Of a stretch of DNA of 64,000 bases, positions 2,977 to 64,000 are shown one piece after another. The translations under genes were made by a program, and so were the position numbers. The notes under the pieces are model-generated. The model was given only the letters and a program-made list of their open reading frames with translations. It did no database searches and was not told the origin of the DNA. Numbering within the stretch: position 1 is the stretch's first letter; every line of letters starts with the position of its first letter. The stretch covers positions 32,001 through 96,000 of IMG/VR virus record IMGVR_UViG_3300032167_007466. The stretch is one strand, 5' to 3'. Source of the DNA: a virus (Duplodnaviria > Caudoviricetes).

Positions 2977-3666
2977 TTATATATCGATATCTAAGTCATC
3001 ATTTTCGAATAAGCCGATTAGCACTCTTGGTATATATCGCCTATCTCGTATGATATTTATTGTCTTACAAATATCATTAACTTGAGCATTTAACTCAGCA
3101 TGATACTGGTTTATTTTATGCAATATTTCAAGCTGAGTTTTTATAGACCTACGCTCAAGCAATATCTTGCTTTCCAGTCTATCTCTTTTATAAGCATCAA
3201 CTGTTCCAAGTTTCTTTTTTAAATGATGATGTTCCAAATCTTCAAAAGCACATTCCAATGCTTGCAGTCTGTTTTTCAGAATTTCTTCGGTTTTTTTAGA
3301 GTTCTCCAATATATTTTGTATGTTTTCAAAAGCAGACACATATTTTTGTACGTTGTCGTCATTATTGAAATCATATAGGTCAAGGGTGTACAACTTCGTT
3401 TTATCAGTCGCAGTATTTTCTATTCTTTTTTGAATTTTTTCTGACTGCGAAAGCGTAGATTTCTCTAAAGCACCATTTTCAAGTTTCGATATAAAAAAGT
3501 TGGAACGCCATGCCTTTGGTACAGAGTTATCTAAAACAGCCTTAGCAACTTGGGCTTTGTCCCATACGTCAGCTAAAGATATGTTGCTTACTATACTGAA
3601 TTGTCCATTCATTGACTGTTTGATAAATTTATTTCCGTCGGTTATGTAATATTCTGCCTTTGCCAA
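2977..3666 (-). CDS. Hypothetical coiled-coil phage protein
   Basis: 229 aa, abuts the upstream gene. Confidence 0.75.
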   Translation of the reverse strand: MAKAEYYITDGNKFIKQSMNGQFSIVSNISLADVWDKAQVAKAVLDNSVPKAWRSNFFISKLENGALEKSTLSQSEKIQKRIENTATDKTKLYTLDLYDFNNDDNVQKYVSAFENIQNILENSKKTEEILKNRLQALECAFEDLEHHHLKKKLGTVDAYKRDRLESKILLERRSIKTQLEILHKINQYHAELNAQVNDICKTINIIRDRRYIPRVLIGLFENDDLDIDI

Positions 3667-4494
3667 TTAACTCACCTTTGCCTTCTTGTTTCTTCTTGGT
3701 TTATTAATTGTATCTTCATACAACTCGTTTATTTGTTTTGCGATATGATAACACGCACCATCTGCACGTCCCGGTCTCAAAATGCCAAATTTCATAAACA
3801 GAGATGCACTTGCGATCAATTCATTAGGAGAAATGTGACCCAAAACATCAATTAAAACATTATCATCCACATCAGAATGTTCGTTAAAGAAGGTAGCCAT
3901 TCCAGTAATAATTGAACTTGTTAAAGAATCTTTGTCTCCAAGCCAAGCACCCCTTAGTACTTTAAGTACTCTTTCAGCCATGCTAAACCCATACTTTTTA
4001 CACATTTTATCGAATTTGCTTACGGCTCCGATAAGGTTGTTGTCTTTTGTAGAGCCATTCTTGTTATAGTCATATTTGTATTTCTTGAATAGACTCACTA
4101 AAGTGATAGCAATATCTTCTTTTTCTTCAACACGACAATGGAATACCTGATTTGCATTAAGTTGAGTTCTCCCTGTGTTGAGAATATTAAATCTCCTACA
4201 TTCCTGTTCGTATGTTAAGCCCGAAAGAACTATCGCCCAGATCTCTTTAAATCCCAGTCTTTTAAGAGCCTCGATTCGGTGCTGTGCATCTATGCACCAA
4301 AACTCTCCGTTTCTCCAACTCACCAAAGCAACACCCATAATATCAGGTATAAAATTTTCGATAATCTTTCTTACCTTTGACATCTTTAACTCTCTTTGAT
4401 AAGGGGCAAACTTGATACTATCTATCGGAATTCTTTTGAGGGTTAGTTCCGGCAACACCCTTGATTCTACGTTCTTTGCTTTAAATATTTTCAT
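3667..4494 (-). CDS. ParB/Srx-like (DUF6551-like) protein
   Basis: YQR...IDAQHR ParB-type motifs. Confidence 0.7.
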   Translation of the reverse strand: MKIFKAKNVESRVLPELTLKRIPIDSIKFAPYQRELKMSKVRKIIENFIPDIMGVALVSWRNGEFWCIDAQHRIEALKRLGFKEIWAIVLSGLTYEQECRRFNILNTGRTQLNANQVFHCRVEEKEDIAITLVSLFKKYKYDYNKNGSTKDNNLIGAVSKFDKMCKKYGFSMAERVLKVLRGAWLGDKDSLTSSIITGMATFFNEHSDVDDNVLIDVLGHISPNELIASASLFMKFGILRPGRADGACYHIAKQINELYEDTINKPRRNKKAKVS

Positions 4495-6094
4495 ACTTCA
4501 TCATCTCCTTGCTTATATATTGATTTATATTTGAAATAATTTCTTGCTGCTTCATCACAATGGTACTATTAGAAGAGAAAGAGTTGTTCTCGTCAGCATC
4601 TATCTCTTTAAAGGCATTTCCCTTAAATGATAGCAACCACTCATCAATATCAATGTCAATATTATTATCAAAAATATATTTAACAGCATAAACATACATT
4701 GGTAAATTAACATCGTTTTCATCGACACCAACATCATCAAGATAAGATTTATAAGATAAACAATCATCTAACATTGATTTTTTCCCGTATTTCTTATACC
4801 ATCTAATAATACTTTTTAATGTGTCGGCTTCAAAATCATTATAAGAATGGTTATCTGTTGTCATCATAAGTGTTTCTAACGCAACACCTTCACTTTCAAA
4901 GTTTTCAGAGAATTCTACAAGTTCTTCATTCATATCATCAGATACACAATCGTCTTTTGGTACATCAACACCAAGATAATCGCACATAAGTTTTGTAAGA
5001 AAATCAATTCGTGTTTTTACAACATTTGTATCCTTAGTAGAAGTGTTTTTTAATAAACCTTCGAAACTAACACCATCTATTTCTTTTATACATAGACCCG
5101 ACATAGGTTCTTTTGTAAGAATTTTGCCCTTTTCATCTCTTGGAATCCCCTTATTTAACTCAAGCATAAATTCATTGAATTTATCATCATCTACACCAAG
5201 TTTAGTAAAACGAGCATACAATCCAAACCATAAGAAACTATATTTAGAATCAAACATTTGACCAACCGATGGGTCAACTAAGTCTTCAAGTGATTCTACA
5301 AGATTTCTAAATTCTTCAAAGTCTTCATTTGTTGCATTTTCTTTAATATATTCACATATTTCACCATAATCCTTAAACCACTTATCTAAGAATCTTGTTG
5401 TCATAACTGATTCAACAATGATACGATAGATTTTTCCGTTTTTGAATTGACTATTCGAATATGCACCAATACCATCTTCGAAAAATGCCATAGATGAAAT
5501 ATTTCTTACTACACTTGCAAAATGAGTTCCTATACGAGTAATACCTTTTTGTTCTGCATTCATTGCACGACCTTCATTATATCTCTTGATATGATACGCA
5601 AGATTTTCTTCTGAACAATCATAATACAAAACAATATCAAAACCGTAGTCAAGAATTCTTTCCTGTAGTTCTCTTGGCAAAGATTTAAACCTTTTACCAC
5701 GAATATCACACACCTCTGTTTTGTGTATTACAATGTTATCTTCATCACGCATCTGTATTCCATCTTCATCAAGAACTGGCACAGCATATTCAATCATATA
5801 TCTATCTATGTTTTTACTTATAGAATACCCATTATTAATGAAATCCTTTATGTTTGTACATCTTTGTTTCCCATCAATACCCCAAGTAACTGGAGCTTCG
5901 TGAATTTCCTGCTCTGCAAATACTAAATCGGGTATTGGATTTTCCTGTAATATATCAGATATTAAATTACCTTTCATTACAGATGACCATTGCTCTGATG
6001 CTCTTTGTAAAGGATGGTCAAAATTAATAGCATGTCTGTCCATCTTTTTTACAATAGAGCCAATATGTAAGCGTATTTTTTTACTGTCTTTCAT
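4481..6094 (-). CDS. DUF262/ParB-like domain protein
   Basis: LQRA..W, IDGKQR motif, YNEG; 537 aa. Confidence 0.72.
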   Translation of the reverse strand: MKDSKKIRLHIGSIVKKMDRHAINFDHPLQRASEQWSSVMKGNLISDILQENPIPDLVFAEQEIHEAPVTWGIDGKQRCTNIKDFINNGYSISKNIDRYMIEYAVPVLDEDGIQMRDEDNIVIHKTEVCDIRGKRFKSLPRELQERILDYGFDIVLYYDCSEENLAYHIKRYNEGRAMNAEQKGITRIGTHFASVVRNISSMAFFEDGIGAYSNSQFKNGKIYRIIVESVMTTRFLDKWFKDYGEICEYIKENATNEDFEEFRNLVESLEDLVDPSVGQMFDSKYSFLWFGLYARFTKLGVDDDKFNEFMLELNKGIPRDEKGKILTKEPMSGLCIKEIDGVSFEGLLKNTSTKDTNVVKTRIDFLTKLMCDYLGVDVPKDDCVSDDMNEELVEFSENFESEGVALETLMMTTDNHSYNDFEADTLKSIIRWYKKYGKKSMLDDCLSYKSYLDDVGVDENDVNLPMYVYAVKYIFDNNIDIDIDEWLLSFKGNAFKEIDADENNSFSSNSTIVMKQQEIISNINQYISKEMMKYENI

Positions 6095-12988: not shown

Positions 12989-13562
12989 TTTACTTTCTCC
13001 ATGTTCTTTAAATAAGATTATATTATATATGTTAACAAAACTCAATATTAGTATAACATAATATTTTACAAATTTCAATAGCAAAAGACCGCCCAAATAG
13101 ACGGTCTAACTTGTTAGCACTCTCAAACAAATTTTCCATATTGCTCGCATTTTGCCAATACCTATGTTATACTCATTATGTGCCTTATGGCAAAGAAAGG
13201 AGTTGGTTTTTATGTCCGACTTTTTGAATTTGCCTTGTTCTTGTGGTAACGGCGATGCGTAAGGCAAGCAAAACTTACATAGCAGAACTCGTACTGCTGA
13301 AGTGAGCCGCATACCAAGATAACACGTAGTAGCATTGCGTTTAGGCGTTGGCATTGTGCTCGTGGCAACCGAAGTCTCGACAGAGTTGCCGTGGATTTTC
13401 CCTAAAGGAATTGTACCCGTGAAGGATTTATCAGTGCTCTTGCAATATGTACAAGTAAACAAATTTGAGAGAAAAAGAGTCTGTGATGCTACCATAGACT
13501 CTTTTGTCTTTGTGCCTACATTATATTATTCTCCATTCGAAAAGAACAATATTAAAAAATCA

Positions 13563-34155: not shown

Positions 34156-34228
34156 GGCGCCATCGTCTAATGGTCAGGACACGAGATTTTCAATCTCGGA
34201 ATGATGGGTTCAACTCCCTCTGGCGTCA
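34156..34228 (+). tRNA. tRNA-Glu(TTC)
   Basis: Acceptor GGCGCCA/TGGCGTC, anticodon arm CGAGA-ttTTCaa-TCTCG, GGTTCAACTCC T arm; no encoded CCA. Confidence 0.88.
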
Positions 34229-37634: not shown

Positions 37635-38101
37635 GGAATATATTAACATAGCTCCTTGCGAGCAACAAAATATCGACACCGCCCCTTGCAGGCATTAAAA
37701 CAATTTGGCTGACGAAAGTCTGGTCAACCGAATTATGGGGAATTTCCTCATCGACGGGTACGAGTCGAAATCATACGGATTGAAAATGGTAAACCGTACC
37801 GATTAGAGTGGCAGACCTAAACTGCTATTAACCGATGACACAATACGCTTTGTCGAGTAGTGATTGTTGAGGTTCTATATCAGTTATTGCTTAGCTGGTC
37901 TCGAATAGGCTTTGCGCTGAAAACAAAAGCGAGAAGTATCACAAACGCAAGATAAGTGATACGCACCACATACTTGAGATGTGGGTATACAATGATTATA
38001 TATGCCGGGCTACTTTCGGTGTATATATGAGTATTGGAGGGGTCGCTTTACCACAGAGTAGATAGCCGTATGGCGAAAGAAAAGCACTTGCACATGTTTT
38101 T
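37635..38101 (+). ncRNA. Probable ROOL large ornate ncRNA (compact)
   Basis: ORF-free, multi-hairpin, GC-elevated stretch. Blocks ACATAGCT, GTACCGATT..AGTGGCAGACCT, GAGTAG, ATCAGT..TTGCTTAGCTG..TCGAATA and TGGCGAAAG..AGCAC match my recollection of ROOL; tRNA-adjacent prophage context. Confidence 0.6.
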
Positions 38102-38144: not shown

Positions 38145-38203
38145 GTCAGTGTAGCTCAGATGGTAAGAGCCTTGGAGCGTAGGTTCAAGTCCTACCACTG
38201 ACC
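38145..38203 (+). ncRNA. tRNA-like RNA lacking the anticodon arm
   Basis: Acceptor GTCAGTG/CACTGAC, D arm GCTC-agatggtaa-GAGC, 8-nt linker, T arm GTAGG-ttcaagt-CCTAC. Confidence 0.75.
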
Positions 38204-38329: not shown

Positions 38330-39418
38330 ATGAAAGGATGTGAGCGTTTGGCTCAAGGTGCAAAAACTAGAGAAGAAATAATTCGTGAGTCGATTGACTC
38401 ACCCAAAACAATTGATACAAGTATTGATTTTAAAATACATAGGTCTCCTAAGCAGTACAATCCAAAAGAGCACGAGTTTAAATGTTCTTGTTGTGGAGCA
38501 GGGTTTAATTCACAAAAAATCAATTTTCAAAAAACAAATAGTCCCCTATTTCAGTCTAATGACGGATACTTGCCTTGGTGTAAGAGTTGTACAGATAAAT
38601 ATATGATACTTCTTACGGCTTTTTATTCTGGAAACGAAGAACACGCAATAGAGCATTTTTGTCAGCAGGTGGATTGGGTATTTGATGTTGAACCTCTTAA
38701 ATGCGCAAGAGAAATTTCATCGGATCGCTCACGCATTAGTCATTATGCCGCTAAAAAGAATTTGAATGTCGGGGGTAGAAAAACATTCTTTGATAGTCTT
38801 AAATACAATTTCTTGAACAAGAAAGCCGAGGTAATTGAAACTCTCGAAGATGTTAAAGATTCTAAAAAGGCTAAGTTAAAAACAGTTAAATTCTTTGGTA
38901 CTGGCTTTGAAGATGACGACTATGTATTCTTAGAAGATGAATATCTCGACTGGACAACTCGACACGAGTGCAACACTAAAGCTCAAGAAGAAGTGTTTAA
39001 ACAGATATGTTATGCTCAGTTAGATATATTGAAAGCAAAACGTGCTGGATTACCTACTAAGGATTTAACAAGGACGCTACAAGATTTGTTGGCAACTGCT
39101 AATTTACAGCCAAAACAAACAAAAGATAATACATTGGCAGAACAAAATACATTTGGCACTTTGATTAGAAAATGGGAAAATGAAAAACCCATTCCTGAGC
39201 CTGACGAAGAATGGAAAGATGTAGATGGTATTGTCAGATATATAACCGTCTATTTCTTAGGACATTTATGTAAAATGATGGGCATAAAGAATTCATATTC
39301 TCGTATGTATGAGGCTGAAATGGCTAAATATAAGGTTGAAAAACCAGAATATGAAGATGATGATGAGGCACTATTTGATGCTGTTTTTGGTGGTGAATTA
39401 GATGATTCAAACCAGTAA
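38330..39418 (+). CDS. Putative terminase small subunit (SPbeta YonG-like)
   Basis: CSCCG..WCKSC zinc finger, TFGTLIRKWENEKPIPE; directly precedes terL. Confidence 0.65.
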   Translation: MKGCERLAQGAKTREEIIRESIDSPKTIDTSIDFKIHRSPKQYNPKEHEFKCSCCGAGFNSQKINFQKTNSPLFQSNDGYLPWCKSCTDKYMILLTAFYSGNEEHAIEHFCQQVDWVFDVEPLKCAREISSDRSRISHYAAKKNLNVGGRKTFFDSLKYNFLNKKAEVIETLEDVKDSKKAKLKTVKFFGTGFEDDDYVFLEDEYLDWTTRHECNTKAQEEVFKQICYAQLDILKAKRAGLPTKDLTRTLQDLLATANLQPKQTKDNTLAEQNTFGTLIRKWENEKPIPEPDEEWKDVDGIVRYITVYFLGHLCKMMGIKNSYSRMYEAEMAKYKVEKPEYEDDDEALFDAVFGGELDDSNQ

Positions 39419-39620
39419 AAAAACAGACAAAGAAGTTGCCAATGACAAGTCTGCCAAAATAATGAATGGCGTTGCTACTTGGTGTAGTTTTTATAGAGCA
39501 AATCCACATCGATTTGCAAGAGATTATTTGGGAGTAACCTTAAAATTCTTTCAAATAATTCTTCTTTATATGATGAACATAAGCAACTACTTTATGTATC
39601 TTGCTGCACGTGGACAGGGT
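39402..39620 (+). CDS. terL: Terminase large subunit, exon 1
   Basis: YRANPHRFARDYLG..FQ..AARGQG, the first half of Walker A. Confidence 0.88.
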
Positions 39621-40645
39621 TAACAAAAAAAAACATCACGTGTGAAAAGGAGAAATAAACAATGAGTAAATATTTTTACAATAAGAGTTATTTCAAAAAA
39701 ATTACAACCGAAAAACAAGCATATTGGCTGGGATTTTTATATGCAGATGGTTGTATAACAAGATTTTACAGGAACGAAAAATTAAAATCTATGTCATTGG
39801 AATTAGTATTGCAGTCGGAAGACAAAGAACATTTAGAAAATTTCAAGTACGATTTAGAAACAAACATTCCCATAGTACATAAAATCATTTCTAATAAGTA
39901 TCATGCAGACAAAATAGTTTTAAACTGTACGTCTCTTTGTAGGGATCTAATTAATTTAGGTTGCACGCCACAAAAAAGTCTAACATTAGAATTTCCAACA
40001 GAAGAAATTGTCCCAAAGCATTTATTGAGACATTTTATAAGAGGATATTTTGATGGCGATGGTGGTGTTTCATATACAGAGGGAGAGTATTATCATTCTC
40101 AAAAAGATAAGTATTATAAACAACATCATTATAGATGTTATTTTTGTGGTAATACGATGTTTTTAAAACAATTACGAGATGTGTTATTATCAGAGGGGAT
40201 TGTTGTTTCTGAATTAAAGAAAGACAATCGCAGTAACGCAGTTAATATTTATATTTATGGTGCTGAGAATATAGAGAGATTTAAACGGTATTTATATTCG
40301 GACAGCCATAGGAATTTATCGCGAAAATACAATAAGTTCTTTTTTATTGAAACTGATAACGAATTACATATAAACAGATAACCACTTTAGCCCTGTCTAA
40401 ATCGGAGAAAATCGGTGAAAGCTAAGTTGAAATATATGCTAATACCGAGGTAATTTTACAGATTGCGAAAGGCTGTAAAACACCGTAGAGAGTAGGAATT
40501 GAATAAATAAAATATTCCCAAGAGTCTCCGACCATATGAATAATATGGATAATGTACTCCAAACTGGGTTGGAATTGACCAACCGATGAAAATGAAGGAA
40601 ACTTCCAGAGCCACGAATAAAGAGTCGTGGGTTAATAACAATTTG
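39621..40645 (+). ncRNA. Group I intron in terL
   Basis: 5' splice after U, terminal G; P1 GACAGGGT/TAA pairs with TTAGCCCTGTC (40387-40397) with U-G wobble; P3 TCGGAGA/TCTCCGA; P7 GAGTA/TACTC; splicing restores AARGQGKT. Confidence 0.92.
39662..40381 (+). CDS. Intron-encoded LAGLIDADG homing endonuclease
   Basis: YWLGFLYADG and FIRGYFDGDG motifs. Confidence 0.92.
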   Translation: MSKYFYNKSYFKKITTEKQAYWLGFLYADGCITRFYRNEKLKSMSLELVLQSEDKEHLENFKYDLETNIPIVHKIISNKYHADKIVLNCTSLCRDLINLGCTPQKSLTLEFPTEEIVPKHLLRHFIRGYFDGDGGVSYTEGEYYHSQKDKYYKQHHYRCYFCGNTMFLKQLRDVLLSEGIVVSELKKDNRSNAVNIYIYGAENIERFKRYLYSDSHRNLSRKYNKFFFIETDNELHINR

Positions 40646-42187
40646 AAAACGTGGTTAACTGCACTATTTTGTGTTATTAGGTGTATTTTATATCCCGGCA
40701 CGAAGATATGTGTTGCATCTAAAAACAGAAATCAGGCAAACGAGGTTCTTGAAAAAATAACTACAGACTTTATGGATAAGTCCGATAATCTTAAAATGGA
40801 AGTTGAAGATTATTCGGTAGGTCAAAACAAGGCTTATATTAATTTTAAAAATGGTTCTTGGATAAAAGTTGTAACAGCTTCAGATTCAGGACGCTCTGCA
40901 AGAGCAAATATTTTGATCACTGATGAATTTAGAATGGTTGATTTAAATGTCATCAACACTGTTCTTAGAAAGTTTTTGACAGCACCAAGAACACCTAAAT
41001 TTTTAAACAAAAAAGAATATAGACACATGGCTGAACGCAACAAGGAGATATATATGTCGAGCTGTTGGTTTAAGTCTCATTGGTCTTTTGAAAAAGCAAA
41101 AGCATATTGTGCAAACCTTGTTAATGATACAAAGAAATACTTTATATGCGGTCTTCCATATCAAGTATCCATTAAAGAAGGTTTATTGTCTCGTGAACAG
41201 GTTGAAGATGAAATGTCAGAAGCAGACTTTTCGGAAATGGCTTGGGATATGGAAATGGGATGTTTGTGGTATGGAGATAAAGACGGAAGCCTTTTCTCTT
41301 ACGAAGATACTTCAAAGAATCGTATCTTAAAAAGATGTGTGTATCCTACCACTATTTCAAGAATGCTTGCAGACAAATCAGTTAAGATACCAGATTTAAA
41401 ACCAAATGAGCAAAGAATTATATCTACTGACGTTGCGTTGCTGGCATCAAAGAAACAAAACAACGACGCCGCTTCGATATTTATCAACAGTGCAATACCG
41501 ACAAACAATCAAAAGTATGTTGGTAATATGATATACACCGAGAACCACGAGGGCTTGAATACTGACGAATTAGCACTAATTATTCGTAGATATTATGAGA
41601 TGTATAAGTGTACATATATCGCTCTTGACGTAAAAGGTATCGGTCTGGGCGTTTACGATTGTTTGATAAAAGATATGTACGACCCATTAACAGGTGAAAC
41701 TTATGGGGCACTGAGTTGTTGTAACGATAAAGTATATGCCGATAGATGTAAGGTTCCGAATGCACCAAAAGTTATTTGGGCAATTCAGGCAACAGCACAG
41801 TTTAATAATGATATGTACTTGTCATTAAGAGAAGGATTACGACAGCACAAAATAAACTTATTGATAAACGAATTCGAGGCAGAAGAAATATTGAGAGATA
41901 TAAGAGGCTACAACTCTTTAGAATTGAGTAACAAAACTTTATTGCAAATGCCTTATATTCACACTACCCTTTTGGTTAACGAATTGATTAACCTTGAATA
42001 TGAAACTAAGGGTGTAAATATTAAAGTATATGAAAAGACCGGAATGCGTAAAGACCGTGTAAGTAGTGTTGGGTATAATTATTGGGTTCAGTGTCAACTT
42101 GAAACCAAGCTTAAAAAGCCCAATGAAAAGAATTTCGACCCATCGAAATTTATAATGTCTAAGCAACCATCTTTGAGAAAATTATAA
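40646..42187 (+). CDS. terL: Terminase large subunit, exon 2
   Basis: KTWLTA, Walker B ILITDEF, nuclease STDVA..ND, KDRVSS. Confidence 0.9.
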   Translation, partial: KTWLTALFCVIRCILYPGTKICVASKNRNQANEVLEKITTDFMDKSDNLKMEVEDYSVGQNKAYINFKNGSWIKVVTASDSGRSARANILITDEFRMVDLNVINTVLRKFLTAPRTPKFLNKKEYRHMAERNKEIYMSSCWFKSHWSFEKAKAYCANLVNDTKKYFICGLPYQVSIKEGLLSREQVEDEMSEADFSEMAWDMEMGCLWYGDKDGSLFSYEDTSKNRILKRCVYPTTISRMLADKSVKIPDLKPNEQRIISTDVALLASKKQNNDAASIFINSAIPTNNQKYVGNMIYTENHEGLNTDELALIIRRYYEMYKCTYIALDVKGIGLGVYDCLIKDMYDPLTGETYGALSCCNDKVYADRCKVPNAPKVIWAIQATAQFNNDMYLSLREGLRQHKINLLINEFEAEEILRDIRGYNSLELSNKTLLQMPYIHTTLLVNELINLEYETKGVNIKVYEKTGMRKDRVSSVGYNYWVQCQLETKLKKPNEKNFDPSKFIMSKQPSLRKL

Positions 42188-58582: not shown

Positions 58583-59677
58583 ATGGACGGTTTAGAAAAG
58601 TATATTTCGTGGGATGTTGATGAAGATAGTGGGTTTAGACGGCTTGTGCTTAATGAATTTGAGTCACCCATAACAGAAATGGAAAAGTTCAAAGAATATA
58701 CAGGAGACAAGAAGGTTTGCCCAATATGTAAGCGCAATCTCCCTAAAAACACATATTTTTTCGCATCTGGAGGTAGCAAACGATACGGTGGACTTCATTC
58801 CTATTGTAAGGAGTGTGAAGGAACAAGGTTTGGTTGGGGCAGAAAGAAGAATGCTGAATTATATGCAGAAAACAAAAAATACTGTAGAACTTGCGACAGA
58901 ATATTACCCTTAAACGAATTATATTTCCAAAAAAGTGATGGTAGATGCAATACAAAAACAGGATTTTCAAGCAATTGCAAGGAGTGTCAAAATCACACAT
59001 TTGGAACAAGAAGTATTAATGCGTTTAAAGATGATTTTGGTATTCGTGACGGATATAAAGTGTGTCATAATTGTATGTTGGAAATGCCAGACACCGATGA
59101 TTATTTTTATCATAAGTCAGAAAGAGAATATGGACAAACTGTTTGCAAGTCATGTATCGCAAAAAAGGCAGGACGAGAACTTACTAACTCCAGACATTTA
59201 AACAAAAGTAAAGTTTATATGTTGAAGGAAGGCGAAAAATTTTGTACATCTTGTGGAGAAATATTTAGAGAAGAAGATATTTTAAGAAATGGTGGTGTTT
59301 GTTTGTGTGACAAGTGTTATCGTGACAGAAACAAATATACATACGAAAAACGTCGTTCAAGAAAAATGAATTTAATATCCGATTTGACACAAGAAGAATG
59401 GAATGACACTTTAAGATATTTTGAGCACAAATGTGCGTATTGTGGAATTGAAGAAAGTGAATGTTTTGGTAGACATCATAAATATTTAGCACAAGAACAT
59501 ATAGTCGCACTAACAAAAGGTGGTCATTTTACAAAAAATAATATTATACCGGTGTGTCCTGTTTGTAATTCTTCTAAAGGCAACAAATCGCTTGACGCCT
59601 TTTATAATAGATGTGATAGTTTCACAACAGAAATGTACAAAAAAGTTAAGGATTTTGTTAGTGCAAATTCCTGTTAA
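58583..59677 (+). CDS. HNH endonuclease with multiple zinc fingers
   Basis: Repeated CxxC; CAYCG..EHIVALTKGG..NIIPVCPVCNSSK. Confidence 0.88.
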   Translation: MDGLEKYISWDVDEDSGFRRLVLNEFESPITEMEKFKEYTGDKKVCPICKRNLPKNTYFFASGGSKRYGGLHSYCKECEGTRFGWGRKKNAELYAENKKYCRTCDRILPLNELYFQKSDGRCNTKTGFSSNCKECQNHTFGTRSINAFKDDFGIRDGYKVCHNCMLEMPDTDDYFYHKSEREYGQTVCKSCIAKKAGRELTNSRHLNKSKVYMLKEGEKFCTSCGEIFREEDILRNGGVCLCDKCYRDRNKYTYEKRRSRKMNLISDLTQEEWNDTLRYFEHKCAYCGIEESECFGRHHKYLAQEHIVALTKGGHFTKNNIIPVCPVCNSSKGNKSLDAFYNRCDSFTTEMYKKVKDFVSANSC

Positions 59678-59756: not shown

Positions 59757-61892
59757 ATGGATGATTTTATAGTCAAACTTATTGCGAGGTTGGATTCAAG
59801 CAAAACTCCCGACGATTTAAGAAAGATTGAACAAGAGTTAAATAAAAAAAAGATAAATCTTCAAACTGTATTAGATACAGCTACTACTCAAAAAGAACTT
59901 AAAAACCTTGCAAAACAGATGCGAGAAGTCTTAAAATCTGAGGGTATTGATATTGATACAAGCACCATTTTAAGTTCATTAAAAAAAGCACAAAAAGCAG
60001 CCGAAGATGCCAACAAAGCACAACAAGAAGGAACAAAAGAAAATATCCGTCTTCGCAAACAAGAGCTGGAGAATATTAGACAGAAAAACAAAGAGTTGGC
60101 GGCTGAAACCGATACAATCAAAAAGACCACTGCAAATGCAAAAGCGAGACATCGAGAGGAAATGGAAGCCATTGATGCCGAAAGGGAGGCACTTGCTAAG
60201 AAAAGAAGGCTTGAAGATGAAAGAGCACGAAAATCTACTTCTCAAACAAAAATGGACAATATCAAGTTTTCTTTGGATAACGGGCATGGTGTTAGTGCAT
60301 ATCAAAACAGAATAAATTCTCTTATTGCTGACTTTGAAAGATACGGTGTTGCAACAAACAAAGCAGAAGCCGAAACAGCTCAGCTACAACAGATTTTAAA
60401 TAATATGAAAGGGATGTCTGGTGAGCAATTAATAGCCGAAGCAGACAGACTCGAACAAGAATTTAAAGCCGTCAAGGTTTCTGTTGACCAAGCAAAGTTG
60501 TCTTTTGATAAATTTAACCAACCCGTTTCAACAGAAAAGGCTTCGTCATTAATTCTGAGAATAAACACATTTTTAAGCAAGAACACTAAAATAACCGAAG
60601 AGGCAAAGGTTAAGTTACAGGAATATGTGCGCTTGCTTGAGGGTGGCGGTGTAACGCTTGGAAAGTGGAATGAGTATAACAATGAACTCAAAAAAGTAGA
60701 AACCTCAATGCGTGGTCTTGGTAGACTTGGTGCTAACTTAAGACAACAAATGAAACAGGCTGCCGAAAGCTTTACTCAATGGGTTTCTGTAAGTTCTGCA
60801 ATTATGTTGGTTATCTCAAAAACCAAACAAGCAATGACTGAACTTAAAGAGGTTAACACACTTTTAACTGAGATTAGCAAGGCAAACGAAAACCTTTCCA
60901 AATCCCAATTAAAAGGCATTGGGAACAACGCGTTTGATGTTGCAAGTGATTACGGTAAAAAGGCAACTGATTATCTCGCTGGCGTTCAAGAAATGTCGAG
61001 AGCTGGTTATTATGATACAGCCGAAGAAATGGGTGAGCTTTCAGTAAAAGCTCAGGGTGCTGGCGATATGACGGCAGAAGTTGCAAACAAATTCATTGTG
61101 GCAACTGATAAAGCATATATGCTTGGCGGCTCGTTAAAAGATTTGACAAGCATTATGGATGGCGTAAACTACATAACCAATCATAATGCAATAAATATGA
61201 CTGAACTCTCGGAAGGATTTTCAGTTGTAGCGTCTACGGCTTCATCTTTTGGTGTAGAAGCAAACGAATTAACTGCCGCACTTGCGACTATGGGCTCAAG
61301 AACTCAACAGAGTGGTTCTGAGGTAGCCCGTGCATTCCGTGCAATTTTACTTAATATTAGGCAGGTTTCCGATGAAGAAGAAGGTATCGATGCCGAGGGT
61401 CTTACAAAGTATGAGAATGCTTGTAATGCACTCAACGTTTCTCTTAAAGAAACCAAGAATGGTGTGCTCCAGACGAGAGATGCTATGGATGTTTTGCACG
61501 ACCTTTCTATTGAATATAATAAACTTGACGAGAACGATTTAAGGAGAACAAACCTTCTTAATGCGGTTGGTGGAAAACTTAGAGCGACACAATTAGACGC
61601 GCTATTGCGTGGATGGTCTGAGTACGAAAAGATGCTCGGTCAGTTTGAAGATGGCACTGGTTCAATGGCAAAAGAAGCCGGAAAAACCGCAAATAGTTGG
61701 GAAGGCTCTATGAACAGGCTTTCCAACACTTGGACTGACACCATTGGAAATATTGCTGATTCTGATGGAGTAATTGGACTTATAAAATCCCTTGATTGGA
61801 TTTTAGATAAAATAAACAATCTCACAGACGCATTGGGCTCACTTGGTTCAATAGGAACTATAGCAGGCATAACACTTAACAAAAAGCTGGGT
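59757..61892 (+). CDS. Tape measure protein, 5' exon (TP901-family core)
   Basis: Coiled-coil N-terminus and TMP core (SGSEVARAFRAILLNI..); ends GGT then TAA at a group I 5' splice site. Confidence 0.88.
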
Positions 61893-62340
61893 TAATTATC
61901 GCATTTTAACTTACCGTAGGCTAAATGGTCTTGCGAGGCTCAGTGGTATATCTCGTGCCGGAATGAAAGATGTCTGGATAAAACACAAAGACAAATGGTT
62001 ATTCATTTTAAGATATACCTATGTTGTAAAATAAAATAAATAAACTGTATGGTAAGGTACAGGCTGTTATATATCTAAGTGTCAACTACTTAGATTTGGG
62101 ATTTAGAAATAACCCAACAAGGACGGGAAAGGCTCACGTGACTCTATAAATTAAGCGTGATGACCCAATTCGCAGAGGGGCGTACTGCTTTTAGTAAGTG
62201 CCACTCCCATCGACTATTAGACAGACACGGATAAACGAAAGTGGATACGTGAAGATATAGTCAAGCCGCCAACCTTGAGTAAGTTGGTAAAAAGTTGTTC
62301 GTTTGTCGTATGCGAAAGCCGAAATACGATGAGTAACACA
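61893..62340 (+). ncRNA. Group I intron ribozyme core in the tape measure gene (3' end not located)
   Basis: P1 CTGGGT/GCTCAG (61938-61943) with U-G; P GACGGGAAA, Q AATTCGCAG, R CATCGACTAT, S AAGATATAGTC; P8 CACG/CGTG; P9 CCAAC/GTTGG. Confidence 0.85.
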
Positions 62341-62434
62341 TCTCTTTTATTAGTCTGTATGTGTGAACAGATAATAAAATAAAGTGTATTCGTGCGATAA
62401 TTATAATTTACAATATATAAAGGATTATAGTACG

Positions 62435-62620
62435 ATGATCAAAACAAACAATAAGACAGCAAAGCACTTATTGCTTGATAGTGGAAAAGCAAGCACAAAT
62501 AACGAGTGTTTTGACAGAGCAAACGATGTTATTAAAATTAAAACTGATGTTGTTACAGATACGCAAGGGAATATAATAATAATTGAAACACCTCGACCAG
62601 AGTATTTATACACATTATAG
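62435..62620 (+). CDS. Small protein (61 aa), paralog of 62636-62797
   Basis: AAAGGA RBS; NDVIKIKTDVVTDTQGNIIIIETPRPEYL. Confidence 0.65.
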   Translation: MIKTNNKTAKHLLLDSGKASTNNECFDRANDVIKIKTDVVTDTQGNIIIIETPRPEYLYTL

Positions 62621-62622
62621 TA

Positions 62623-62651
62623 AAACAGGAGACAGTTATTTGTCTCCTGTT
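62623..62651. terminator. Hairpin/bidirectional terminator between convergent ORFs
   Basis: AACAGGAGACA-gttatt-TGTCTCCTGTT. Confidence 0.65.
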
Positions 62652-62797
62652 AGTATTTCAGAATTATTTTCCGATTCTTTGAGAGAAAAGGTTTCTACTA
62701 AATATTCTGGTTTTGGGGTTACGACATTAATCGGAACGCCCTTGCTATCTGTTAACTGAATATCTGTGTTCATTTTTATAGCATCATTTTCTGACAT
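62636..62797 (-). CDS. Small protein (53 aa)
   Basis: Read manually: MSENDAIKMNTDIQLTDSKGVPINVVTPKPEYL...; GGAGGTGAG RBS; overlaps the upstream membrane gene. Confidence 0.7.
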   Translation of the reverse strand: MSENDAIKMNTDIQLTDSKGVPINVVTPKPEYLVETFSLKESENNSEILTGDK

Positions 62798-63362
62798 CTA
62801 TCTCACCTCCCTGCACATAAATTTCAGTAACTTCCTGAACATTTTGAGTCGATTCGTAATAATCAATGGAAACATTAATAGCAAAAGATAGGAATGTCAC
62901 TATAAATGTTGCTGTAATCATTTTAATCAAACTACGATGTCTATCATTTTTCTTAATGTTGAGTTCTCTATTATGGATAGCATCGTTAATAAAACGTTCA
63001 GCCATTTTTAATTCAAGAATTTCGTTAGCTTTATCTTTTTGATTTGTTTGAATTGAATTTAATACAGCAGTGTTTTGTGTGGCAATTGATTTTATTGGAA
63101 ATAACTGCGTTTTGTATCCAGAATATGTTCTAAAAAACATACCGATACAGATACAAAACATAATCGTAGATATTATGCAAAACACAAGATAAACACCAGT
63201 ATACCACAATAATTCGTAATTTTTAAATTGCGTCCATAACAATATTAATGCACTACCAATTATTGTTAAAAATGTAATACAAGTAGATATTTTACCGTTT
63301 AGACGGTCATTGAATTCTATTTCTTTGTAATAGAGTTCTTTGTATTCCTGAAGTAAATCCAC
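62784..63362 (-). CDS. Three-TM membrane protein (possible defence effector)
   Basis: Three hydrophobic helices, AAAGGAGG RBS. Confidence 0.7.
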   Translation of the reverse strand: MDLLQEYKELYYKEIEFNDRLNGKISTCITFLTIIGSALILLWTQFKNYELLWYTGVYLVFCIISTIMFCICIGMFFRTYSGYKTQLFPIKSIATQNTAVLNSIQTNQKDKANEILELKMAERFINDAIHNRELNIKKNDRHRSLIKMITATFIVTFLSFAINVSIDYYESTQNVQEVTEIYVQGGEIDVRK

Positions 63363-63395
63363 AATATGTATCCTCCTTTGTGTTCTTTAGAAAAT

Positions 63396-64000
63396 TTACT
63401 TGTGCCCGTGTAAATCCCTATTCAATGCTTCGAGCCAACCGCCGGGTTTCCACTTAAATCCACACTTCTTGCAGACATTCCTATGATTGCCTGAACCAAG
63501 AAATCCTGTGGTTAATGTAAAACCTCTTGTTCCTGATGTGATATCTGTAGAGCCACATTGAGGGCAAGTAAGTTGTTTTTCGGTTGGTTTAGGTTGAGAT
63601 TGAATTTGCTCTGCTTGTTTAGATTGGTTACGAAACTGAGACATTTTGAGTTCGTATTCTATAATGTCTTTTTCTTTGAGTTGTATCATTGCCCGAAGAA
63701 AAGATTGGTCTGTTGATATGTCTGTAATAGTGAAATAATCGTCTATGGATAGTTTATCTAAAATAGAACTGTCATTTACAACGATACAATGTTTTCCTAC
63801 GGGTACTCCACAATTTGGACACTTGTCTGCTATTCCAGTGGTTTTTGTTCCACAGATACGACAAAGAATACATGTGTTACTTGACATTAGTTCATCTAAG
63901 CTCATGTTACTAACTGGATAAAAATTATTTTGAGAACATACGGGACACTTTTCTATGTTTTCATCTACTTGATAGCCACAAGTTTTACAATACTTTTTCA
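63396..64000 (-). CDS. Multi zinc-ribbon protein (start at or just beyond the window edge)
   Basis: Frame open to 64000: CKTC..CPVC, CRIC..CPNC, CPQC..CKKC. Confidence 0.75.
   Translation of the reverse strand, partial: KKYCKTCGYQVDENIEKCPVCSQNNFYPVSNMSLDELMSSNTCILCRICGTKTTGIADKCPNCGVPVGKHCIVVNDSSILDKLSIDDYFTITDISTDQSFLRAMIQLKEKDIIEYELKMSQFRNQSKQAEQIQSQPKPTEKQLTCPQCGSTDITSGTRGFTLTTGFLGSGNHRNVCKKCGFKWKPGGWLEALNRDLHGHK

Follow-up and report, generated by a model that had tools for sequence, protein, structure and literature searches.

The 64,000-nt stretch of viral DNA analyzed here (the window; bases 32001–96000 of the 109,289-nt IMG/VR provirus record IMGVR_UViG_3300032167_007466, which has a completeness rating of 79%) ends in a region where the tape measure protein (TMP) gene of the phage appears to be interrupted, and our analysis indicates with a probability of roughly 0.8 that this TMP is encoded by one gene with two exons (712 + 1364 codons), parted by a single 2188-nt group I intron. 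The remaining 13 kb of the record were read as locus L002 (L002 coordinate = window coordinate minus 59000), and the region was compared with three relatives, namely L003 (an ENA contig), L004 (a Logan contig) and L165 (the metagenome contig JABLTO010084858.1, of which 8.1 kb are covered). To judge by how homologous proteins and loci are named, the hosts are gut Clostridia (Lachnospiraceae, Eubacterium and Oscillospiraceae). L003 is an independent assembly with an identical architecture, and the split layout of the TMP gene is therefore not an assembly artefact. The exons and splice sites are laid out as follows (here and below, ^ marks the splice junction).

59757–61892, + strand: predicted TMP exon 1, 712 codons; the stop codon TAA of its reading frame (61893–61895) forms the first three intron bases
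61887–61892, + strand: CTGGGT, the 5′ strand of helix P1, from the RNAalifold P1 helix with U·G at the junction and from the splice-site scan
61893–64000 plus 80 nt past the window end, + strand: predicted group I intron, 2188 nt in total, with G as its last base (window-equivalent 64080 = L002 5080)
61930–61943, + strand: internal guide sequence, CTTGCGAG (P10) followed by GCTCAG (P1), from RNAalifold, the splice-site scan and a record-wide scan

The open reading frame (ORF) at 59757–61895 (712 aa) matches PF10145 at E 3e-19 and phrog_4211 at E 3.5e-56 and is, judged by these profile matches, the N-terminal part of a TMP. It ends in ...AAG CTG GGT TAA, just as a preliminary description of this DNA had read it, and the ORF listing agrees with that description that no + strand ORF resumes before 64000; the 5′ splice site is after T61892 and not at 61889. 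The 3′ exon that it expected more than 1.7 kb further on was found 2188 nt after the 5′ splice site. This exon 2 begins 81 nt beyond the window end, at L002 5081 and directly behind the G at 5080, in a frame that is open from L002 5024 to 9175 and has neither an ATG nor a Shine-Dalgarno sequence, and it supplies a TMP C-part of 1364 aa in frame with exon 1. A downstream tail gene with its own ribosome-binding site and start, which would have spoken for separate genes, was not seen, the C-part ORF being devoid of a start signal. Joining the exons gives a product of 712 + 1364 = 2076 aa, with the predicted spliced RNA junction CTGGGT^CTTGCAAGG and the predicted protein sequence ...ITLNKKLG^LARFDSEGKFESVF..., which reads LNKKLG^LARFDSEGKF at the join.

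If the two ORFs are halves of one protein, then TMPs of uninterrupted genes should run through the join, and they do. The uninterrupted TMPs P0071 and P0122 each cover the junction of the joined protein in a single high-scoring segment pair, and 62/120 long TMPs (45–72% identical to exon 1) align across it, most of them without a gap at G^L. At this point the uninterrupted TMPs share the motif NK(D/N)YG(I/L)(T/S)...K(F/I)D(I/V)(Q/E)GN, so that LNKKLG^LAR..FDSEGKF here stands against MNKDYGIT..KFDIQGN there; as the alignments run across this motif, the intron sits in a conserved one, which is where group I introns are usually placed. Both exons, and all tail genes further downstream, retain long open frames.

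The splice sites themselves are defined by the guide. The pairing of CTGGGT with GCTCAG (61938–61943), with U·G at the junction, had already been noticed in the preliminary description; it is present, RNAalifold recovers the helix independently, and it is kept in L165 and L003. Directly upstream, CTTGCGAG (61930–61937) pairs at 8/8 positions with CTTGCAAG, the first 8 bases of exon 2, which stand behind a G. P1 (the 6 last bases of exon 1) and P10 (the 8 first bases of exon 2) together make 14 uninterrupted pairs on CTTGCGAG^GCTCAG, and the two exon ends adjoin each other on the guide as in the classic P1/P10 arrangement. Before splicing, TGCGA of the guide (61932–61936) is predicted by RNAalifold to pair with TCGCA (61899–61903) as an extension of P1. 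When 5757 combinations of the two splice sites and the guide were scanned blindly, a sole 12/12 solution emerged, the junction L002 2892^5081 with the guide at 61932–61943, and the same junction was the sole 12/12 match in L003 too. A G followed by 8/8 pairing to CTTGCGAG occurs at six positions in the entire 109-kb record; of these, just one falls in the 6 kb that follow the 5′ splice site, and it marks where exon 2 starts. By chance, a site of this kind would lie in frame within the ~60 nt concerned with a probability of roughly 1e-3. Splicing to a proximal G, which would have spoken against a distant exon, finds no candidate: none inside the intron has a P10 of 7/8 or better. The block GTCAA(T/G)TG^CT(T/C)GCAAG(G/A) at the start of exon 2 is shared by L002, L003 and L004, as is the G before CTTGCAAG, and in L004 a change of the third exon 2 base from U to C turns a G·U pair of P10 into G–C. 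Another in-frame G, which would put the 3′ splice site at L002 5089, was rejected, the position being an A in L003.

The ribozyme module comprises the first ~443 nt of the intron (61893–62335), with the following elements, all on the + strand.

61945–62019: long P2 arm (GGTATATCT × AGATATACC plus inner helices), with three compensatory pair changes relative to L165
62096–62335: ribozyme core, from the minimum-free-energy fold, RNAalifold, the core-signature search and the breakpoint at 62335
62096–62117: GAAA-capped hairpin, part of the core
62122–62175: P4/P5, part of the core
62122–62130: P motif GACGGGAAA, from sequence
62167–62175: Q motif AATTCGCAG, from sequence
62175–62210: P6, part of the core
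62208–62217: R motif CATCGACTAT, from sequence
62212–62217 × 62257–62262: P7, from the unconstrained minimum-free-energy fold
62226–62251: P8, from the same fold
62252–62262: J8/7 and P7 element AAGATATAGTC (S), part of the core
62268–62288: P9, from the same fold
62305–62330: P9.1, from the same fold

The P/Q (P4) and R/S (P7, J8/7) elements occur in the right order and spacing, and in the unconstrained fold P7 encloses P8 and is followed by P9 and P9.1. The core pattern CGCAG..CGACTA..GATATAGTC, derived from the present intron, matches more than 119 viral stretches, and in 8/11 loci tested the match falls exactly on the Q, R and S positions of RF00028 introns, with about 1e-4 chance matches of the Q-R-S pattern expected per 64-kb window. 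A stricter P-Q-R pattern was discarded, its one match being a chance hit in a GC-rich gene. RNAalifold applied to the ribozymes of this phage, L165 and L003 predicted 126 pairs, 12 of which show compensatory changes (three in P2, two in P5 and the others in P2.1, two hairpins, P4, P8 and P9.1), with 8 compatible one-sided changes and 5 broken pairs; slid controls gave 0–3 compensatory changes, and the ribozyme fold is therefore under selection. From the guide, the fold and the open downstream frame we infer that the TMP intron is spliced.

Between the ribozyme and exon 2 lies a multi-gene cargo, and all ORFs that the preliminary description had listed for it (a + strand peptide, a minus-strand peptide, a membrane protein and a zinc-ribbon protein) are present.

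62436–62620, + strand: 61-aa peptide gene, paralogue of the minus-strand peptide with the shared motif TP.PEYL (BLASTP cluster)
62625–62650, no strand assigned: hairpin where the two peptide genes converge; TTTT follows it on the minus strand but not on the + strand
62636–62797, − strand: 53-aa peptide gene, overlapping the end of the membrane-protein gene
62784–63362, − strand: 192-aa helical membrane protein, with at least 141 family members in prophages of Clostridia
63396–64001, − strand: 201-aa multi-zinc-ribbon protein (three zinc ribbons), with its start ATG at window-equivalent 64001

A minus-strand promoter, TTGACA-17-TATAAT with an extended −10 TG (12/12 match), lies at window-equivalent 64077–64049, its −35 box 3 nt from the terminal G of the intron. 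It is conserved in L003 and L004, and similar promoters adjoin exon 2 in L010, L011 and L015. Searches of the intron and its four cargo ORFs against Pfam, PHROGs and PADLOC found no LAGLIDADG, GIY-YIG, HNH, His-Cys or PD-(D/E)xK nuclease and no transposase, TnpB or known defense family. The lack of a homing endonuclease that the earlier account had noted is borne out by this; the defense role it had proposed for the cargo is not, PADLOC being negative and the fold search uninformative.

The membrane protein is always followed by the peptide gene, which in some homologues is fused to it as a C-terminal tail, and the pair is also found outside TMP genes beside varied neighbors, which makes it a mobile cassette and not an intron-specific gene. 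The AlphaFold model of the membrane protein (pLDDT 78) is an all-helical bundle for which Foldseek against the PDB returned only generic helical bundles at E>0.04. PF18967 (the Pycsar-type transmembrane effector) has a precomputed match in 2/120 listed homologues and none in a scan of 25 members, and an ESM atlas PycTM-like score of 0.87 is a weak lead only; with no significant PF18967 match and no cyclase nearby, the protein was not assigned to Pycsar. For the zinc-ribbon protein the ESM atlas leads are likewise only weak. Its C-terminal half is conserved and its N-terminal half variable among relatives, and L011, L019 and L020 have related zinc-ribbon genes in the equivalent place, antisense and immediately before the TMP C-part. 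Tentatively, the cargo might be a membrane-acting accessory or exclusion module. As a separate observation, the membrane protein, a 52–55-aa peptide and a convergent peptide paralogous to it form a cassette that is widely distributed among Clostridia prophages at places other than TMP introns (L141–L149); in L148 it adjoins the gene of a 488-aa protein in which a GmrSD_N/DUF262-like domain is fused to an S24 peptidase/repressor domain.

The relatives indicate that this cargo is exchangeable. A metagenome scan found in L165 a ribozyme that is 82.6% identical over 476 nt and is placed at the same TMP codon (...AGG CTG GGT^). Identity to L165 fades at ~62335, and contigs from other samples diverge at exactly 62335. 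Behind the ribozyme, L165 carries a different cargo of at least 3.9 kb on the sense strand (two membrane proteins, a 343-aa protein and an NYN-domain protein), with exon 2 not reached within the part covered; its guide, TTGGCGAG, differs from CTTGCGAG and predicts an exon 2 start like CTCGCCAA after a G. The preliminary description had suggested looking for variable cargo at this site and had pictured the intron as a landing pad, an idea that is supported by a ribozyme that ends at ~62335 with different sequence behind it in L165 and in the contigs from other samples. Between L002 and L003 the segment L002 2813–4692 is 97.8% identical and the ribozyme 99.8%, while the TMP exons are more diverged (the first 500 aa of the C-part are 87% identical, and identity overall is lower) and exon 1 comprises 1009 aa in L003 versus 712 here. 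The tract of identity opens 80 nt into exon 1 and closes within the zinc-ribbon gene, and transfer was therefore by recombination and not by classical two-sided homing. Further relatives were sought with less success: GenBank phages gave no match to the locus (megablast), to the ribozyme (blastn) or to exon 2 (tblastn), and exon 1 matches there only SPbeta-like and other TMPs at 25–35% identity, and an IMG/VR search with P0001 found no relative.

Together these data suggest a model in which the guide, in the late transcript, would first hold the end of exon 1 (P1, with U·G at T61892) and, after the first step, the first 8 bases of the distant exon 2 (P10), whereupon the terminal G would be bound and the exons ligated in cis to restore a full-length TMP. 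Everything from 62335 to 3 nt before the 3′ splice site would be passenger DNA, consisting of a sense peptide gene and an antisense operon (zinc-ribbon protein, membrane protein and peptide) that its own consensus sigma-70-type promoter would drive independently of the late transcript, making it expressible from the prophage. The intron would in this way serve as a phenotypically silent store for exchangeable accessory genes inside an essential virion gene. It is doubtful, if conceivable, that the system goes further and is fully modular, with a 440-nt ribozyme and a fixed breakpoint (~62335) behind which whole accessory or defense cassettes are swapped, and with the intron acting in addition as a regulatory switch in which the antisense promoter or the constantly present zinc-ribbon protein couples lysogeny to splicing. 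In the switch version, the TMP RNA would stay unspliced up to induction, owing either to antisense transcription or to a protein bound at the 3′ splice site.

Several observations weigh against a single spliced group I intron. Although P, Q, R, S, P8, P9 and P9.1 are present as the preliminary description had stated when it called the core complete, a canonical P3 adjoining P4 was not found, with no complement there to the P3′ position (62218–62226). The base of P4 has two non-canonical pairs, and L003 does not keep the two bases that precede the terminal G (P9.0). The covariance-model check that the same description had proposed went against the intron: Rfam RF00028 failed to match either 2.3 kb or 256 nt of the sequence, E≤10 included, and Rfam at gathering threshold and at E≤10 gave no group I match on the window and its 18-kb continuation. 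The miss is probably due to the lack of a canonical P3 together with the non-canonical pairs at the base of P4; RF00028 scored 30 introns in control loci, and it also misses the other phage-type cores L019 and L099. Four public sequencing runs on the locus proved to be contigs of relatives without joints and are uninformative on splicing, and an identical 338-nt pig-gut metatranscriptome contig that spans 62554–62891 does not prove transcription. The rating of the provirus as 79% complete makes a decaying prophage possible, and transcription or folding could suffer from the strong promoter that runs against the gene and from the 1.7 kb of antisense-coded RNA.

Candidates for the strand that pairs with 62218–62226 as P3 are TGTCTGG at 61971–61977 (7 bp, inside the P2 arm, kept in L165 and the sole conserved complement), CTGTT and TCTAA; a P3 formed by CCCAAC next to P4 was dropped for want of a pairing partner. 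TGTCTGG (61971–61977) is complementary to TTAGACA (62218–62224), and L165 retains the pairing through a change from G·U to A–U. On this evidence the pair may be a long-range P3 of an unusual kind, or else a competing or tertiary contact.

The alternative that survives best, itself unlikely, is that the TMP is made as two polypeptides, with the ribozyme a relic, the 2.2-kb accessory island lying between two genes, and the C-part starting at a TTG or GTG chosen by the gene caller. Hundreds of C-part-only ORFs of 1200–1600 aa have indeed been annotated by gene callers in relatives, and the RF00028 miss and the unsettled P3 would fit a relic as well. However, no Shine-Dalgarno sequence precedes the TTG at 5078 in L002 or its counterparts in L003 and L004, an 8-bp P10 would have to fall exactly at the in-frame G, the compensatory changes show selection on the RNA fold, and the uninterrupted homologues are continuous through the junction motif.

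It is more improbable still that the prophage is decaying, that is, that an intron which once spliced was inactivated by the insertion of the cargo and left the TMP a pseudogene. The completeness rating, the size of the cargo and the collision to be expected between antisense and late transcription are compatible with this; yet both exons and the downstream tail genes keep long open frames, the same layout is found in L003 despite diverged exons, the ribozyme evolves by compensatory changes, and cargo-laden gaps of 2.5–5 kb are common in the TMP clade.

The least probable alternative is trans-splicing, raised in the preliminary description, in which late transcription would stop at the stable hairpin at 62625–62650 (there described as terminator-like) and a second RNA, comprising the 3′ end of the intron and exon 2 and possibly made from a + strand promoter of its own, would be joined through P10 and tertiary contacts, but the hairpin has no + strand U-tract and fails a terminator scan, within the final 80 nt of the intron there is a minus-strand promoter but no recognizable + strand one, and no long complementary segments that could unite two RNAs were seen. 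Since the hairpin lacks a + strand U-tract and is not called as a terminator, we favor cis-splicing.

Split TMP genes are not confined to this phage. In its clade they are often interrupted by multi-ORF gaps of 1.4–5 kb, while sister phages have uninterrupted TMP genes of 2600–3000 aa. A covariance model of the present ribozyme (R1) found no further copy in 27 related loci, and the other split TMPs therefore use other introns; a P1/P10 scan of L005, L011 and L015–L020 gave no clear guide. Compared with L007 (at 5583), L005 has an extra 1460 nt (4122–5581) cleanly inserted at a different TMP site, within the PF10145 domain; the insertion has no Rfam group I match and carries a 391-aa Cys-rich ORF with a DUF2726 C-terminus, likely a homing endonuclease. 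L015 has two tandem Rfam 6A RNA matches (56 and 51 bits) at 3396–3496 in the multi-gene gap of its split TMP. In L011, a 217-aa + strand ORF at 4903–5556 in the TMP gap has a weak PF10145 match and may be a middle exon, in which case the TMP there would have at least two introns.

To our knowledge, phage group I introns are regarded as selfish elements that carry at most a homing endonuclease. The intron of T4 nrdD (sunY) has its core at the 5′ end, an ORF downstream and a remote 3′ splice site that is returned to the core; its cargo is one sense homing endonuclease gene, whereas several genes, three of them antisense, are found here. Phage morons are self-contained cassettes with their own promoter that stand between late structural genes and can be active in the prophage state. 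With its 12/12 promoter with TG and a minus-strand hairpin with TTTT that fails the terminator rule, the present cassette may be akin to them; unlike morons, it would lie inside a gene and be harmless only through RNA splicing. Nuclear ribosomal DNA (rDNA) group I introns with homing endonuclease genes on the antisense strand offer a parallel for antisense protein genes in a group I intron, there in eukaryotic rDNA and with an endonuclease (PMC9548176).

The closest precedents are TMP-IVS1/2/3, group I introns in the tape measure genes of Bacillus cereus-group prophages, which have compact IA1/IA2 ribozymes with at most a (partial) endonuclease ORF, some being without a homing endonuclease (Tourasse and Kolsto 2008, PMC2504315). 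They share with the present case a group I intron in a conserved motif of a Firmicutes prophage TMP, a P1/P10 guide that sets the site, and related ribozymes common to different phages (PMC2504315). In contrast to them, the core and the 3′ splice site are set apart here by 1.75 kb of genes that encode no nuclease, run mostly antisense and have a promoter of their own, and no sequence similarity between the TMP-IVS introns and the present intron was found. In the IStrons CdISt1 and BcISt1 a ribozyme is coupled to passenger genes of ~1.5 kb, and such long chimeras, ~2 kb in all, are spliced in vivo (Tourasse et al. 2014, PMC4227781). As in those elements, a ribozyme is joined here to passenger genes and the element would be spliced out, rendering the insertion harmless; unlike their mobile IS200/IS605 TnpA/TnpB cargo, the cargo here is a promoter-bearing antisense operon in which Pfam and PHROGs found no transposase, TnpB or IS ends. 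A search of the available literature for group I introns of phages that carry cargo or anti-phage genes turned up no account of this cargo layout.

The TMP intron and its relatives suggest a second lifestyle for such introns, in which the ribozyme makes a site in an essential and highly conserved virion gene safe for insertions and promoter-bearing cassettes gather and are exchanged there. If this is true, it would account for many of the tape measure genes that gut-phage annotations show as split, accessory or defense genes of prophages would have a hot spot of a new kind, and the intron would be a natural example of efficient long-range cis-splicing over ~1.7 kb of unrelated antisense-coded RNA, relevant to ribozyme engineering. 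Gene callers and tail predictions based on TMP length would then have to allow for such introns.

Other elements of this phage deserve mention. A free-standing HNH endonuclease gene at 58583–59677 (PF01844, E 5e-7) ends 80 nt before the TMP start and is not there in L003; its product might mobilize the endonuclease-less TMP intron. A LAGLIDADG ORF at 39662–40381 (PF14528, E 1e-13) lies between the + strand ORFs 38330–39418 and 40586–42187, a putative split terminase (38330–42187 overall). The interruption is probably another group I intron of this phage; Rfam gave no group I match here either. Gathering-level Rfam matches in the window are a FuFi-1 RNA (74.8 bits, 13256–13507), a drum RNA (53.4 bits, 37987–38090) and two tRNA genes (34156–34228 and 38145–38203).

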